Assembly (NCBI GenBank): GCA_029945195.1
Contig: GCA_029945195.1_4117.1
DNA: 64,000 bases
Strand: one strand, 5' to 3'
Source: a phage
A model generated the notes under the pieces. That model was given only the letters and a program-made list of their open reading frames with translations. It was not told where the DNA came from and did not search any database. Positions 631 to 10,460 of the stretch are shown piece after piece; positions within the stretch are counted from its first letter, which is position 1; each line of letters opens with the position of its first letter. Position numbers and translations under genes: made by a program.

Positions 631-705
631 ATCAGGACGGGGAACGAAATAAGTAACTTCCCGTTAAGTAGCCCAGGAGTAAGGCACACGAAAAACTCCC
701 CTGAT
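631..705 (+). ncRNA. conserved ~75-nt structured leader element, copy 1
   Basis: closed by ATCAGG/CCTGAT stem, internal hairpin ACGGGGAA..TTCCCGT; near-identical copy at 9669-9741 with the same flanking promoters. Confidence 0.4.
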
Positions 706-3074: not shown

Positions 3075-3103
3075 AGCCCACCTTAAACAGTGGGCTTTTT
3101 TGT
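3075..3103 (+). terminator. rho-independent terminator
   Basis: AGCCCAC-loop-GTGGGCT then TTTTTTG; exact duplicate at 3810-3837. Confidence 0.7.
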
Positions 3104-3305
3104 TTTTGTATTATCGTAGTACTGCATACTTTAAAAATAGTTTTAAAATAGTAGTTGACATTACCACAAAAAGGCGTAGAATGTATTACATCAAGACGGG
3201 GAGCACTAAGTAGACCGCCAGTAAGTCGAACGAAAAACTGGACACGTCGATAAAACTTTGATACACTAATAAACGTAAACTAAACTTTAATTGAGGATTT
3301 ATAAA

Positions 3306-3788
3306 ATGGCTAATGTAAAATCATTCCTGAAAGCACTGATTTCAAACGATACTGTTATTGCTGCTGAATTGTTGGCTGACCTGGATAACGATACCATGAA
3401 AGCAGTACGCAACAATTTTAACATTGCGTACAGTGAAGCTAAAGAACTGCAAGCCAAAAAGGTAGCAGAACTGGAAGAACAGAAAAAAGCCCGTGAAGCC
3501 GAACTGCAAGCAACAATCGAAAGTATCCAGGCGGCGGTGGCTGGATTGGATCTGGAAGTAGTTGTAGAAATGGCACATAAAGCCCTGGCGGTTAAGTATG
3601 GTGAAGATAAGCCAGAATCTAAACCTAAAAAATGGATTCAAGAACGTGTTACTGTAGTACTTGATAACGGGGAAGAACATATGATTCCTGTACGCGGTAA
3701 CTGCATTGCGGTAGTACTGGACGCTATCAAAGAAAGCGGTATGACTCGCGAGGAATGGATCGAAGCTCATCGCAAAGTTGAAGCATAA
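3306..3788 (+). CDS. hypothetical charged, helix-rich protein (160 aa)
   Basis: track ORF 3291-3788 trimmed to ATG 3306 (SD GAGGA); K/E/A-rich. Confidence 0.55.
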   Translation: MANVKSFLKALISNDTVIAAELLADLDNDTMKAVRNNFNIAYSEAKELQAKKVAELEEQKKAREAELQATIESIQAAVAGLDLEVVVEMAHKALAVKYGEDKPESKPKKWIQERVTVVLDNGEEHMIPVRGNCIAVVLDAIKESGMTREEWIEAHRKVEA

Positions 3789-3809: not shown

Positions 3810-3837
3810 AGCCCACCTTAAACAGTGGGCTTTTTTG
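3810..3837 (+). terminator. rho-independent terminator
   Basis: same AGCCCACCTTAAACAGTGGGCTTTTTT as 3075-3103. Confidence 0.7.
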
Positions 3838-6237: not shown

Positions 6238-6314
6238 AAAAAGTGGTTGACTTCGGTCAGCCATTTTGCTATTATATATTCATTGAGAGATAGCTCACTA
6301 GCCCACAGGGTGCA
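6238..6314 (+). repeat. composite intergenic repeat, copy A
   Basis: hairpin 6238-6267 with embedded TTGACT 6247-6252 and TATTAT 6270-6275; conserved motif CTAGCCCACAGGGTGCA 6298-6314. Confidence 0.6.
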
Positions 6315-6368
6315 GGAGTGTATCTATTGTATAATGTTTGAGTACTGAAAACTATTTTTAAAAAGTAC

Positions 6369-9497: not shown

Positions 9498-9567
9498 AAA
9501 GGGATTGACTCCGGTCAGTCCCTTTGCTATTATATATTCATTGAAACAATCTAGCCCACAGGGTGCA
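9498..9567 (+). repeat. composite intergenic repeat, copy B
   Basis: hairpin 9498-9525 with embedded TTGACT 9505-9510 and TATTAT 9528-9533; motif CTAGCCCACAGGGTGCA 9551-9567. Confidence 0.6.
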
Positions 9568-9585
9568 TAAATGTATCTATTGTTT

Positions 9586-9593
9586 GCTGGTGG
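9586..9593 (+). other. Chi site GCTGGTGG
   Basis: exact octamer, intergenic. Confidence 0.6.
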
Positions 9594-9633
9594 CTAGTAC
9601 TATCAAGTACTGAAAACTATTTTTAAAAAGTAC

Positions 9634-9661
9634 TTGCATTGTACTTAGAATCAAGTATAAT
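9634..9661 (+). promoter_or_regulatory. sigma70-type promoter (TTGCAT-16-TATAAT)
   Basis: -35 9634-9639, -10 9656-9661. Confidence 0.55.
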
Positions 9662-9668
9662 GTTTTAC

Positions 9669-9741
9669 ATCAGGACGGGGAACGAAATAAGTAACCCCGT
9701 TAAGTAGTCCAGGAGTAAGACATACGAAAACCTCCCCTGAT
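9669..9741 (+). ncRNA. conserved ~75-nt structured leader element, copy 2
   Basis: about 90% identical to 631-705 with the same flanking promoters. Confidence 0.4.
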
Positions 9742-9748
9742 AAAATAG

Positions 9749-9777
9749 TTTGACAATAGAAATTAAACGAGTATAAT
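9749..9777 (+). promoter_or_regulatory. sigma70-type promoter (TTGACA-17-TATAAT)
   Basis: -35 9749-9754, -10 9772-9777. Confidence 0.6.
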
Positions 9778-9807
9778 ACTTACATCAACCACAAAGAGGA
9801 ATACAAA

Positions 9808-10008
9808 ATGAAACATTTTACTTTCGGTGTAGTAGGCTTTACAGTATCCAGCGGCGTTTATAAATCAGAACGCGGTGCTAAAAATGCAGCAAGTCGGGCG
9901 TATGGTTCACAGCGTGACTTACAGGTCGGTTATATTAGTAACATTAATAACATGTTTATTCCTGTTTCACAGCGTAAAGCGGGTAACATGAAATGGGAAA
10001 CAATTTGA
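9808..10008 (+). CDS. hypothetical protein (66 aa)
   Basis: ORF track; SD AGAGGA. Confidence 0.6.
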   Translation: MKHFTFGVVGFTVSSGVYKSERGAKNAASRAYGSQRDLQVGYISNINNMFIPVSQRKAGNMKWETI

Positions 10009-10097
10009 TAAAATAGTTTGACAATAGTTTTTAGTACTGTATAATATTTTACATCAAGTGGGGAATAGTTCCCCACCTAACAAAGAGAGAAATTAAA

Positions 10098-10373
10098 ATG
10101 CGGATTCTACTGACAGCTAACGAAATCGAGCAAGTACTGACTACTAACCTGGAACAATGGAAACGTGATGCAGATATCCAGGCGGTACAATGGCTTAACG
10201 ATAAGTTAACGCCGGATGACTTAAGCAAGATTGTAGATCCTCAATTCTACGAAGATATTCACGACACCGCGTTAAGCGTCGAGGATGTACTTGATAAGCA
10301 CTATATTGATACTGATTTACAGGTTTACGGTCGTAAAAACTTTATCACTATTCACGACATTTACAATACTTAA
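10098..10373 (+). CDS. hypothetical acidic protein (91 aa)
   Basis: ORF track; hairpin 10059-10077. Confidence 0.6.
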   Translation: MRILLTANEIEQVLTTNLEQWKRDADIQAVQWLNDKLTPDDLSKIVDPQFYEDIHDTALSVEDVLDKHYIDTDLQVYGRKNFITIHDIYNT

Positions 10374-10460
10374 GTATTGACAAAGTATCTTAGTACTGTA
10401 TAATAGTTTACATCAAGGCAGGGGAATGGTTCCCCTCCTAACTAAAAGAGAGAAATTAAA

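Follow-up and report, generated by a model that had tools for sequence, protein, structure and literature searches.

What is the element of about 75 nt that stands twice in this phage DNA, each time wedged between two promoters, and what would its RNA do at the start of an infection? The initial annotation of the 64,000-nt stretch analysed here (the window) had described two copies, about 90% identical, at 631-705 (copy A) and 9669-9741 (copy B), each with a promoter -10 box before it and a second promoter after it, and had offered a small stable RNA, a riboregulator leader or a processing signal as candidate functions. All coordinates given below refer to the + strand.

The element is duplicated together with its promoters

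The duplication is borne out by global alignment, in which copies A and B agree in 69 of 75 columns (92%) and differ by four substitutions and one 2-nt indel. Each half of the element has exactly two occurrences in the window at up to three mismatches, where shuffled sequences are expected to give none. The repeat is also wider than the element itself and takes in the upstream promoter (P1), the element, the downstream promoter (P2) and a ribosome-binding site together, over about 560-775 versus 9595-9810.

The arrangement between two promoters was recovered around both copies using a consensus scan and reading of the sequence. P1 of copy A (TTGCAA-16-TATAAT, 596-623; 10 of 12 consensus positions) lies 7 nt before the element, with a predicted start at about 630-631, and P2 (TTGACA-16-TATAAT, 714-741; 12 of 12) lies outside the RNA fold and serves the gene at 774-1385. 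P1 of copy B (TTGCAT-16-TATAAT, 9634-9661) was read by eye, its -35 box matching the consensus at only 3 of 6 positions, which is below the threshold of the scan and hence not listed by it; P2 of copy B (TTGACA-16-TATAAT, 9750-9777) again matches at 12 of 12 positions and serves the gene at 9808-10008. In both copies, the 5' end of the element coincides with the predicted transcription start of a sigma70-type promoter, and its 3' end lies about 10 nt before a consensus promoter.

The RNA is predicted to form a clamped pseudoknot

In copy A, the bases AUCAGG (631-636) pair with CCUGAU (700-705) in a closing helix (P0) that is part of the minimum-free-energy fold. These are the paired ends (ATCAGG/CCTGAT) that had been described for the DNA, and copy B has them as well (9669-9674 with 9736-9741); the complementarity of the two strands in copy A was equalled by 87 of 2000 shuffles. 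Directly behind the 5' strand, sequence and fold place a hairpin (HP1), formed in copy A by ACGGGGA and UCCCGU around a loop of 13-14 nt (637-664) and in copy B by 9675-9680 and 9695-9700. An internal hairpin had been assigned to both copies and is found in both, although the form quoted for it, ACGGGGAA..TTCCCGT, is exact in copy A only, copy B reading ACGGGG..CCCCGT.

Between this hairpin and the 3' strand of P0 lies an H-type pseudoknot of the form UAAGUAG-N-S2a-UAA-G-N-C-R-Y-ACGAAAA-S2b. In copy A, this core occupies 665-699 (covariance model match 664-703, 50.5 bits, together with pair counts). Its stem S1 pairs 668-669 and 671-673 with 683-687, leaving A670 bulged, its stem S2 pairs GGAG (676-679) with CUCC (696-699), and its loops are UAA (680-682) and ACGAAAAA (688-695). 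In copy B, the model matches 9700-9739 (50.7 bits), with S1 at 9704-9709/9719-9723 and S2, of the same sequence as in copy A, at 9712-9715/9732-9735. Across the family, S1 consists of five pairs (G-Y, U-R, G-C, N-N' and C-G) plus the bulged A, and S2 of four to five pairs; the loops UAA and A(C/U/A)GAAAA are invariant, and about 20 invariant nucleotides are unpaired or at junctions. Because S1 and S2 interleave, they could also be alternative hairpins instead of one simultaneous pseudoknot.

P0 clamps the pseudoknot, usually with HP1 as an extra hairpin: 12 of 13 subtypes carry a helix of 4-9 pairs at this place, with differing sequences, and the HP1 stem is retained despite changes in length and wobble pairs in copy B and in phages 121Q, outra and A7_1. 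In T7-like phages, the HP1 loop pairs with the 3' tail to give P0, creating a second pseudoknot, and in the forms found in jumbo, phi92-like and rV5-like phages P0 involves the very first bases of the transcript. Of the structure proposed initially, a folded sense-strand RNA with paired ends and a hairpin at +1 of an early promoter stood up against the homologues in other phages, and the pseudoknot core had been missed. The wide distribution of this core, the third copy and the full extent of the duplication had likewise escaped the initial annotation.

A diverged third copy

A pattern scan located copy C at about 3190-3251, with a model match at 3206-3245 (52 bits). It is only 60% identical and lacks HP1. 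Its P0 pairs GACG (3195-3198) with CGUC (3245-3248), its S1 pairs 3210-3215 with 3225-3229, and its S2 pairs CCAG (3218-3221) with CUGG (3238-3241). All three copies in the window carry the family core UAAGUAG-N-C ... UAAG-N-C-R-Y-A(C/U/A)GAAAA. Copy C follows a promoter (TTGACA-16-TAGAAT, 3155-3182, found by scan and in the sequence) that is itself downstream of a terminator at 3075-3096, and forms part of the 5' untranslated region of the gene at 3306-3788; a strong second promoter is missing. When the window was searched with the core model (R1), the three copies scored 50-52 bits and the next best match 13 bits; these scores are partly so by construction, the window copies being included in the training alignment, and the pairing itself was read directly from the sequence. 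The three units are single and 2.5-6.5 kb apart.

All four helices covary across the family

The initial annotation had proposed folding the two copies as a covariation pair. Carried out across homologues of the family, this check showed strong covariation in all four helices, in a sample whose sequence diversity comes mostly from T7-like phages and in which the Asteriusvirus copies are nearly invariant. Among 25 distinct cores, 95.2% of cells were paired and the covariation score was 0.403 compared with 0.155 in shuffles (reached by 0 of 500), and sliding the registers of the same cores by 1-3 columns reduced pairing to at most 50%. With 31 distinct cores, 96.8% of cells were paired, and the pair of columns 9 and 22 occurred as A-U, C-G, U-A and G-C; these two columns can pair in 22 of 22 family members, as against 4 of 22 unrelated sequences that match the pattern. 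In 21 T7-like sequences, the four helices showed 11 two-sided pair changes compared with 3.2 in shuffles (0 of 500). The closing helix has had its entire sequence replaced at least ten times across the family, and an in-register test of P0 in T7-like phages gave five covarying pairs. In S2, three to four pairs covary across the family, and RNAalifold recovers this helix unaided.

G·U pairs are frequent, being found in 22 of 31 cores at one pair, and the folded strand is therefore the sense strand. On the reverse strand, folding showed no advantage over shuffled sequences (z -0.2 to -1.0), and every G·U pair would there be a C·A mismatch; an antisense RNA was rejected on these grounds.

The core recurs in T7 and other phages

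The core is found in T7 at bases 551-586, between the E. coli promoters A1 and A2 (annotated starts 498 and 626, respectively), and hence inside the annotated A1 transcript. It is also present in 486 T7-like records, the carriers of which span at least 11 enterobacterial genera, and in Asteriusvirus, Salmonella and Erwinia jumbo phages, phi92-like phages and rV5-like phages. The element is always promoter-proximal: it lies on the sense strand, no more than about 50 nt after a sigma70-type early promoter. Its placement at +1 is kept behind three different promoter sequences (copy A, outra and A7_1) at a constant distance from the -10 box, the gap from the element to the next promoter ranges from 0 to about 40 nt, and the downstream genes vary between copies and between phages. 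In T7, some 340 nt and two further promoters separate the element from the first gene; A1 transcripts alone include it, and transcripts of the same genes that start at A2 or A3 lack it. Two contigs (L033 and L108) have an rrn-type boxA 20-35 nt after the element, and in T7 a boxA occurs at a later point of the same leader. Gene cassettes have been exchanged with phage muut, and the element travels with cassettes, as seen from a shared gene.

The region of the T7 element between A1 and A2 is unannotated in every listed record. In the searchable literature, no description of a folded structure came up for the T7 A1-A2 spacer or for Asteriusvirus leaders, although older subscription literature may contain one; the T7 sequence occurs in just a few searchable papers, only within long DNA strings, and going by title or abstract none of these papers seems to be about RNA structure.

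Searches for known identities

An Rfam search, also suggested initially, returned no match at the gathering threshold over the whole window. Rfam 15, the families of which include the preQ1, SAM-II, fluoride and guanidine-III riboswitches, the pistol, twister, hatchet and hammerhead ribozymes and known phage RNAs, gave no match over the element (330-800) at E up to 10, and none in the T7 leader. Upstream of the element, at 514-582, RT-6 gave a weak match (E 0.19) that appears to be due to chance. The statement that the element is not a tRNA agrees with ARAGORN, which finds no tRNA or tmRNA gene in the window. A protein-coding role was rejected, as the sole open reading frame (622-717) begins within the -10 box, ahead of the transcription start, and is broken by the indel in copy B; no conserved open reading frame covers the element. 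No terminator-like site was found within or right after 631-705, 3190-3251 or 9669-9741, and there is no U-tract.

A sequence mimic of a host or plasmid RNA was likewise rejected: a pattern scan of 185,579 bacterial species genomes gave chance matches and one T7-like contig only, and blastn gave no match to the element in 5,426 E. coli genomes or 72,556 plasmids. We also considered a mimic of the nested pseudoknot in the alpha-operon leader that is bound by S4, and found no similarity when the leader was read and the core model was run on it. As to a phage protein that might serve as a shared partner, tblastn of all open reading frames of the window against 379 kb of motif-flanking T7-like DNA yielded one weak match (E ~1e-5), and the downstream genes belong only to PHROG families of unknown function, with no Pfam match above threshold.

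Proposed role and rival explanations

We hold with moderate confidence that the element is a conserved, phage-specific structured RNA domain that serves as an autonomous immediate-early module binding a conserved host component. In this proposal, early promoters read by host RNA polymerase would place the domain at the 5' end of the transcript, the domain would be a self-contained folded module that P1 exists to produce, and the invariant loop nucleotides would most likely form a binding surface for an Enterobacterales-wide host protein or RNP, which the RNA would capture or recruit in the first minute of infection. The element would pass between unrelated virulent phages inside promoter-linked early cassettes. 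Autonomy is supported by the adjacent genes of copies A and B, which have their own P2 with 12 of 12 consensus positions and their own ribosome-binding site, as well as by the variation in downstream genes and in the gap to the next promoter. A host partner is preferred over a phage partner because the motif spans many phage groups and a single weak protein similarity connects the window with the T7-like DNA around the motif. Strict confinement to virulent Enterobacterales phages, a position at the 5' end of the earliest transcripts and invariant loops together point to a host-directed function at the start of infection.

Of the functions suggested initially, that of a riboregulator of the adjacent gene appears the least favoured, because this gene is served by a consensus promoter and a ribosome-binding site that both lie after the element, because unrelated genes follow the element and because of the distance to the first gene in T7. 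With no terminator behind the element, processing would be required to release a discrete small RNA; failing that, the domain would act within a longer mRNA, and a cis role fits equally well. In a bolder form, which we put forward tentatively, the domain may represent a previously unrecognised class of immediate-early RNA effectors, made seconds after DNA entry and capturing or reprogramming a conserved enterobacterial component, with candidate targets such as a defence sensor or nuclease, Rho, RNase E or a part of the ribosome or RNA polymerase. Such an effector would have gone unnoticed in the T7 A1-A2 spacer and been traded horizontally among at least five virulent phage lineages, which we regard as equally tentative.

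Somewhat more doubtful is a leader acting in cis, the nascent RNA staying with or acting on its own transcript or polymerase. Such a leader could make RNA polymerase resistant to Rho or pausing, for which the put RNA of HK022, a phage leader RNA of about 65 nt that modifies RNA polymerase, is a precedent (PMC8632103), or it could bury the 5' end and so block 5'-end-dependent attack or scanning by RNase E. The constant promoter-proximal position on early transcripts would fit this, as would the pairing of the very first transcribed bases by P0 in the jumbo, phi92-like and rV5-like forms, the continuation of P1 transcripts into the downstream gene, the location of copy C in an ordinary 5' untranslated region and the boxA sequences in L033, L108 and T7. 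However, T7 makes A2 and A3 transcripts of the same genes without the domain, and with a perfect promoter of their own the genes behind copies A and B would be expressed mostly from mRNA that lacks it. Protection of the 5' end would be achieved by a simple hairpin, as in the other leaders of the window, which leaves the roughly 20 invariant loop nucleotides unexplained. Transcripts initiated at A1 terminate efficiently at the T7 early terminator in vitro, which argues against factor-independent antitermination of the put type. A small-molecule aptamer of the riboswitch kind or a self-cleaving ribozyme, with the invariant junction as ligand pocket or active site, is unlikely in our view. The fold packs four short helices, as many as two nested pseudoknots and some 20 invariant unpaired or junction nucleotides into 55-75 nt, a complexity typical of such RNAs, the A-rich loop 3 is of the kind that in H-type pseudoknots often docks into a helix groove, and cleavage by a ribozyme could leave a 5'-OH on the downstream mRNA. 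Against this, no riboswitch or ribozyme family of Rfam 15 matches even at E up to 10, no expression platform is evident (neither a terminator nor a sequestered start site is linked to the fold), the GGAG of S2 in the jumbo form is GCCUG or CCAG elsewhere, and absence from the bacterial genomes searched would be unusual for a metabolite sensor; we also know of no report of self-cleavage from decades of in vitro transcription of T7 A1 templates.

That the element is a decayed and functionless cassette of promoter, leader hairpin and Shine-Dalgarno sequence, which lost its gene and was duplicated by cassette recombination, has little to recommend it to us. Its first 50 nt or so do resemble ordinary leaders of the window (ATCAGG, a GGGGAA..TTCCCC hairpin and AGGAG), promoter-linked cassettes shuffle in T4-type phages (PMC2839356), and gene cassettes have been exchanged with phage muut. 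This reading is contradicted by the covariation, with compensatory changes in four helices next to invariant loops in at least five phage lineages and hundreds of genomes; moreover, conservation of AGGAG is limited to the forms in jumbo and phi92-like phages, there is no start codon behind it, and no reading frame survives the 2-nt indel that separates copies A and B. Action as DNA, whether on the downstream promoter (as its UP element or an activator site) or as a site of protein binding or recombination, is the explanation that we find hardest to credit. A promoter does usually lie just downstream, and the -35 hexamer of T7 A2 is at the same time the 3' strand of P0, with an A-tract at about -41 to -45. 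Yet the gap between the element and the next promoter ranges from 0 to about 40 nt, no strong promoter stands behind copy C or the elements of L033 and L108, and neither compensatory changes nor an abundance of G·U on one strand would be expected of a duplex DNA site.

Relation to known systems

Few viruses have been studied as well as T7, the A1 promoter region of which is in standard use in transcription biochemistry. A covarying multi-helix RNA at this place would surprise specialists, unless it is already described in literature beyond our search. The same RNA is common to T7, to jumbo phages of 350 kb and to phi92-like and rV5-like phages. The motif is in none of the RNA family libraries searched; it would add a new family to such libraries and improve the annotation of more than 500 phage genomes. 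RNA-based functions of the kind proposed are rare and of current interest for phage-host conflict and phage engineering.

Among RNAs of comparable architecture, the type III antitoxins (ToxI and relatives) are short pseudoknotted RNAs that bind and neutralise a protein, an endoribonuclease toxin, and a phage pseudo-ToxI mimic is a precedent for their use in counter-defence. The element shares with them its small size and pseudoknot and may, like them, bind a protein, and differs in lacking a tandem array of 34-45 nt repeats and an adjacent toxin gene, and in having no similar sequence in the bacterial genomes, E. coli genomes and plasmids that we searched. Compact, sometimes nested pseudoknots also serve as specific protein-binding sites in E. 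coli 5' leaders bound by S4 (alpha operon), S15 (rpsO) and L20 and in that of T4 gene 32, where they overlap the ribosome-binding site and autoregulate translation of the adjacent gene; the phage element, in contrast, involves no start site, and its core model matches nothing in the alpha-operon leader.

Two phage systems resemble the element in its setting. The promoter-early stem-loops (PeSL) of T4-type phages combine strong sigma70-like early promoters with a stem-loop, recur among small non-essential genes and mediate modular gene shuffling (PMC2839356). P1 and P2 are similarly strong and sigma70-like, the ordinary leaders of the window resemble PeSL, and the element travels with cassettes of this sort; however, PeSL are simple terminator hairpins with a recombinational role, whereas the element has several covarying helices and invariant loops, and nothing in it resembles a terminator. 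The put sites of HK022 (putL and putR) are cis-acting antiterminator RNAs that form a double hairpin of about 65 nt and modify RNA polymerase without any phage protein (PMC8632103); put acts on the polymerase that transcribes it and suppresses pausing and both intrinsic and Rho-dependent termination. Put and the element have in common that they are folded phage RNAs of about 65-75 nt, carried in early leaders that host RNA polymerase transcribes, but put belongs to a temperate lambdoid phage with one site per early operon, shows no sequence similarity to the element and lacks a pseudoknot, in place of which the element has interleaved S1 and S2 closed by P0.

The true homologues of the window element are the T7 A1-A2 spacer (NC_001604, about 535-590) and its equivalents in T3, Kayfunavirus and other Studiervirinae, which have the same core, preceding hairpin and closing helix, the same position in a sigma70-type early transcript and a promoter afterwards. 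They differ in that the T7-like domain starts about 38-45 nt after the transcription start, compared with +1 in copies A and B, in that its closing helix uses the HP1 loop where the window form uses the 5' end, and in that S2 is GCCUG/CAGGC in place of GGAG/CUCC.

A duplicated promoter-leader block in an Asteriusvirus early region

The initial annotation described the stretches at 631-705 (copy A) and 9669-9741 (copy B) as copies of one structured element with about 90% identity, and alignment confirmed this, with 69 of 75 columns identical (92%) and the differences amounting to four substitutions and one 2-nt indel in the hairpin. At ≤3 mismatches, either half of the element has exactly two occurrences in the window, where none would be expected. 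The proposed placement between a -10 box and a second promoter also holds for both copies: TATAAT (618-623) ends 7 nt before the start of copy A and TTGACA begins at 714, 8 nt past its end, and copy B has the same layout with TATAAT at 9656-9661 and TTGACA at 9750. The duplication exceeds the element, in that the promoter before it (P1), the element, the promoter after it (P2) and a ribosome-binding site were copied as one block. Minimum-free-energy folds of both copies recovered the paired ends (closing helix P0, AUCAGG/CCUGAU) and the internal hairpin (HP1) that had been noticed in the sequence, together with a third helix, GGAG/CUCC, with modest fold z-scores of -1.6 to -2.4. In agreement with the statement that the element is not a tRNA, a tRNA search found none in the window, and the suggested Rfam scan returned zero matches for the window copies and likewise for the T7 leader discussed below. 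A conserved ORF was rejected, as the only one (622-717) begins within the -10 box and its frame is broken in copy B, and so was an antisense RNA, as the reverse strand of copies A and B folds no better than shuffles.

Over its first 1.4 kb, the window matches the ~350-kb E. coli jumbo phages of the genus Asteriusvirus (PBECO4, 121Q, G17 and phAPEC6 group) with 95-96% identity. In Asteriusvirus records with annotated direct terminal repeats, the places of copies A and B and of a third copy, C, all lie within these repeats, 3.7-14 kb from the left end. The region is a plus-strand array of small genes, nearly each with its own predicted sigma70-type promoter, and a consensus scan detected 73 promoter-like sites in 11 kb versus 37 expected, ten of which are perfect 12-of-12 matches.

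Several other repeated signals were seen in the window. The 64 kb contain 221 copies of AGTACTG, often as the palindrome CAGTACTG, versus 7.5 ± 3 expected from shuffles (for example at 392-399, 566-573, 10033-10039 and 10392-10398). They frequently lie directly 5' of sigma70-like promoters or within the promoter spacer, and the sequence may serve as a regulatory or protein-binding site specific to the phage. A second promoter-linked family (378-470, 6240-6330 and 9498-9590) consists of a hairpin with a 12-bp stem and the -35 TTGACT inside, followed by a -10 of TATTAT or CATAAT and a conserved transcribed part (ATTCATTG...TAGCCCAYAGGGTGC...GTATCTAT); two of its three copies lie 150-220 nt 5' of copies A and B, and it may represent another small RNA or protein-binding site. 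Between two repeated elements 5' of copy A, a leftward promoter on the minus strand (550-522), with a perfect 12-of-12 sigma70 consensus and an extended -10 TG, is predicted to give a transcript antisense to ~380-520. The ordinary early leaders (e.g. 39-116, 10018-10097 and 10377-10460) are highly stereotyped, running from TATAAT through 7 nt, ATCA(A/G)G, a GYGGGGAA-nnn-TTCCCCRC hairpin and a ribosome-binding site to ATG. They are similar to the promoter/stem-loop (PeSL) cassettes known from T4-type phages, and the 5' part of the duplicated element looks related to them.

The element is shared by unrelated phages of Enterobacterales

A first blastn search with the 88-nt element as query found it in all listed Asteriusvirus records, at two places each or at four where both terminal repeats are included, and at 88-92% identity in ~145 kb phages of unrelated lineages, with carriers in Justusliebigvirus (outra, muut, EmilieFrey, A73 and W70) and Vequintavirinae (A7_1 and A5-4). 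The promoter sequences of these carriers vary (e.g. TTGACA-N16-TAAGAT in A7_1), the 7-nt gap from the -10 to the element is kept, and the next promoter follows 3' of the element. A blastn search started from the A7_1 copy returned partial, weak matches close to the left end in T7-like genomes, and on reading, these loci contain the 3' half of the element flanked by two host-type promoters. The T7 copy (551-586; TAAGTAGACAGCCTGATAAGTCGCACGAAAAACAGG) sits between the annotated E. coli promoters A1 (start 498) and A2 (start 626).

The family was then extended by scanning IMG/VR, metagenome contigs and a single genome for each bacterial species with degenerate patterns, and by blastn with copy C and with the T7 version, the latter matching 486 phage records. 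The motif is present in T7-like phages of Escherichia, Klebsiella, Salmonella, Yersinia, Enterobacter, Citrobacter, Shigella, Serratia, Pantoea, Erwinia and Cedecea, and beyond these in Asteriusvirus, phi92-like and rV5-like phages, the Salmonella jumbo phages Munch, 7t3 and PHA46 and an Erwinia jumbo phage. Among the one-per-species bacterial genomes, matches to the pattern were limited to chance ones and one T7-like contig, and the motif was not found in 5,426 complete E. coli genomes or 72,556 plasmids. Sequence mimicry of a host or plasmid RNA was rejected, as nothing similar was found in these E. coli chromosomes or plasmids.

In muut, an unrelated 146-kb phage (locus L002, 2650-2924), the motif and P2 directly precede a homologue of window gene 10098-10373, whereas in the window a 66-codon gene (9808-10008) separates them. 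Early-gene cassettes have evidently been swapped between phage families at promoter junctions. In T7 (locus L011, 498-535) and its relatives, the first ~40 nt of the A1 transcript, 5' of the motif, are conserved (ATCGA..GGGACACGG..) and hairpin-capable. Their similarity to the 5' end of copy C (ATCAAGACGGGGAGCAC) suggests that the entire promoter-leader unit is homologous across lineages.

Covariation supports a pseudoknot core

The conserved core reads 5'-UAA-GU(A)GNC-N-S2a-(N)UAA-GN'CRY-A(C/U/A)GAAA(A/G)N-S2b. Helix S1 pairs GU-GNC with GN'CRY, leaving the A bulged, and helix S2 pairs the segment following S1a with the segment following the A-rich loop. The predicted interleaved topology is that of an H-type pseudoknot, with a loop 1 of 1 nt, UAA or AUAA as loop 2 and ACGAAAAA as loop 3. 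In 25 distinct cores, 95.2% of S1 and S2 cells are paired, with a covariation score of 0.403 versus 0.155 in shuffles (reached in 0/500), and slid registers pair at ≤50%; 31 distinct, model-aligned cores gave 96.8% and 0.417 versus 0.160. The free S1 pair (columns 9-22) is A-U, C-G, U-A or G-C and never unpaired in these 31 cores. S2 occurs as GGAG/CUCC, GCCUG/CAGGC, GCCUG/CAGGU, GCUUG/CAAGC, ACCUG/CAGGU, CCAG/CUGG, GCCAG/CUGGU and ACUUG/CAAGU, and RNAalifold finds it unaided, with 3 of 4 pairs compensatory. As a control, unrelated sequences matching the same search patterns had columns 9-22 paired in 4 of 22 cases (~25% expected) and C at column 23 in 6 of 22, versus 22/22 for both in family members. 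G·U pairs are frequent (22/31 at columns 5-25), and therefore the folded strand is the sense strand.

Both the pattern scan and a covariance model built on the core (R1) detected exactly three copies in 64 kb, at 664-703 (copy A), 3206-3245 (copy C) and 9700-9739 (copy B), all scoring 50-52 bits, with 13 bits as the best score elsewhere in the window. Copy C (~3190-3251) is ~60% identical to copies A and B, lacks HP1 and lies in the 5' untranslated region of gene 3306-3788. It is preceded by a terminator (3075-3096) and a promoter (3155-3182, TTGACA-16-TAGAAT); neither promoter scan nor sequence revealed a strong second promoter 3' of it. This transcription unit is bracketed by two intrinsic terminators of identical sequence (AGCCCACCTTAAACAGTGGGCT plus T-run), at 3075-3096 and 3810-3831.

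P0 joins sequence 5' of the core to the bases immediately 3' of S2b, and varies by lineage: copies A and B share AUCAGG/CCUGAU with the phi92-like and A7_1 forms, copy C has GACG/CGUC, UPEC06 has GACGG/CCGUC, the Erwinia and Salmonella jumbo phages have GCGGC/GUCGC and CGGC/GCCG, and two metagenome contigs have AUCGAA/UUCGGU and AACGAA/UUCGUU. T7-like phages use the loop of HP1 as the 5' strand of P0, and their structure is thus a pseudoknot nested within the long loop of a second pseudoknot. Here P0 is GUCAA/UUGAC, whose 3' strand in T7 is the -35 hexamer of A2, or GUCGGU/ACCGAC, GUCAUC/GAUGAC, GAUUAG/CUAAUC, GCUAA/UUAGC or GUCAC/GUGAC. Over HP1, P0, S1 and S2, 21 T7-like sequences are 92.6% paired, with 11 two-sided pair changes versus 3.2 in shuffles (0/500), and of these compensatory pairs five fall in P0 and three in HP1 in the in-register alignment. 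The window form differs in nesting, its order being P0, HP1 and core, and its first transcribed bases, counted from the predicted start, are paired.

A candidate immediate-early RNA module

Other readings of the locus did not fit. A terminator scan at the element ruled out a terminator. A DNA-level UP element is incompatible with gaps of 0 to ~40 nt to the next promoter and with copies that no promoter follows. Covariation contradicts a decayed leader, and the core model gives no match to the alpha-operon leader in the region of its S4-binding pseudoknot.

By the position of the predicted promoters, early host-polymerase transcripts carry the domain at their 5' end or close to it, and in T7 the transcript concerned is the well-characterised A1 transcript. 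Since the downstream genes are mutually unrelated and, for copies A and B and in phi92-like and rV5-like phages, have a consensus promoter, a leader hairpin and a ribosome-binding site of their own, P1 and the domain appear to form a stand-alone unit that yields the RNA itself as its product. The ~20 invariant unpaired nucleotides among sequence-variable helices suggest a defined tertiary fold and a surface for binding. As carrier phages have nearly no proteins in common and their hosts are all Enterobacterales, a conserved host component is a more likely partner than a phage protein. We therefore lean, by a little over even chances, towards an autonomous RNA module that would be made immediate-early and would capture or recruit a host factor; within this reading, the structure is much better secured than the function.

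The main rival, a cis-acting leader that is 5'-protective or resembles put, the antiterminator RNA of HK022, would agree with the paired 5' end of the transcript, the absence of a terminator 3' of the domain and the proximity of boxA in some phages. We nevertheless consider it rather unlikely, given that the domain is restricted to A1 transcripts in T7 and to P1 transcripts in the window. An rrn-type boxA (GCTCTTTAACAA) was seen in the T7 early leader at 813-825, 3' of A3, and only 20-35 nt 3' of the pseudoknot in two metagenome contigs (L033 and L108); the 64-kb window contains no full boxA. An aptamer or ribozyme would match the complexity of the fold but appears improbable, as the element has neither an expression platform nor an Rfam relative.

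Relation to known RNAs

The element is a member of a new RNA family. It has no Rfam model, no RNA annotation in the listed records (the motif carries either no feature or 'hypothetical protein') and no published description that we could find. The last point refers to a full-text literature search that did not extend to older subscription papers on T7 early transcription, where an earlier mention is possible; exact sequence strings occur in only a few papers, which judging by title and abstract are not on RNA structure. The nearest known kinds are folded phage leader and non-coding RNAs and protein-binding pseudoknots.
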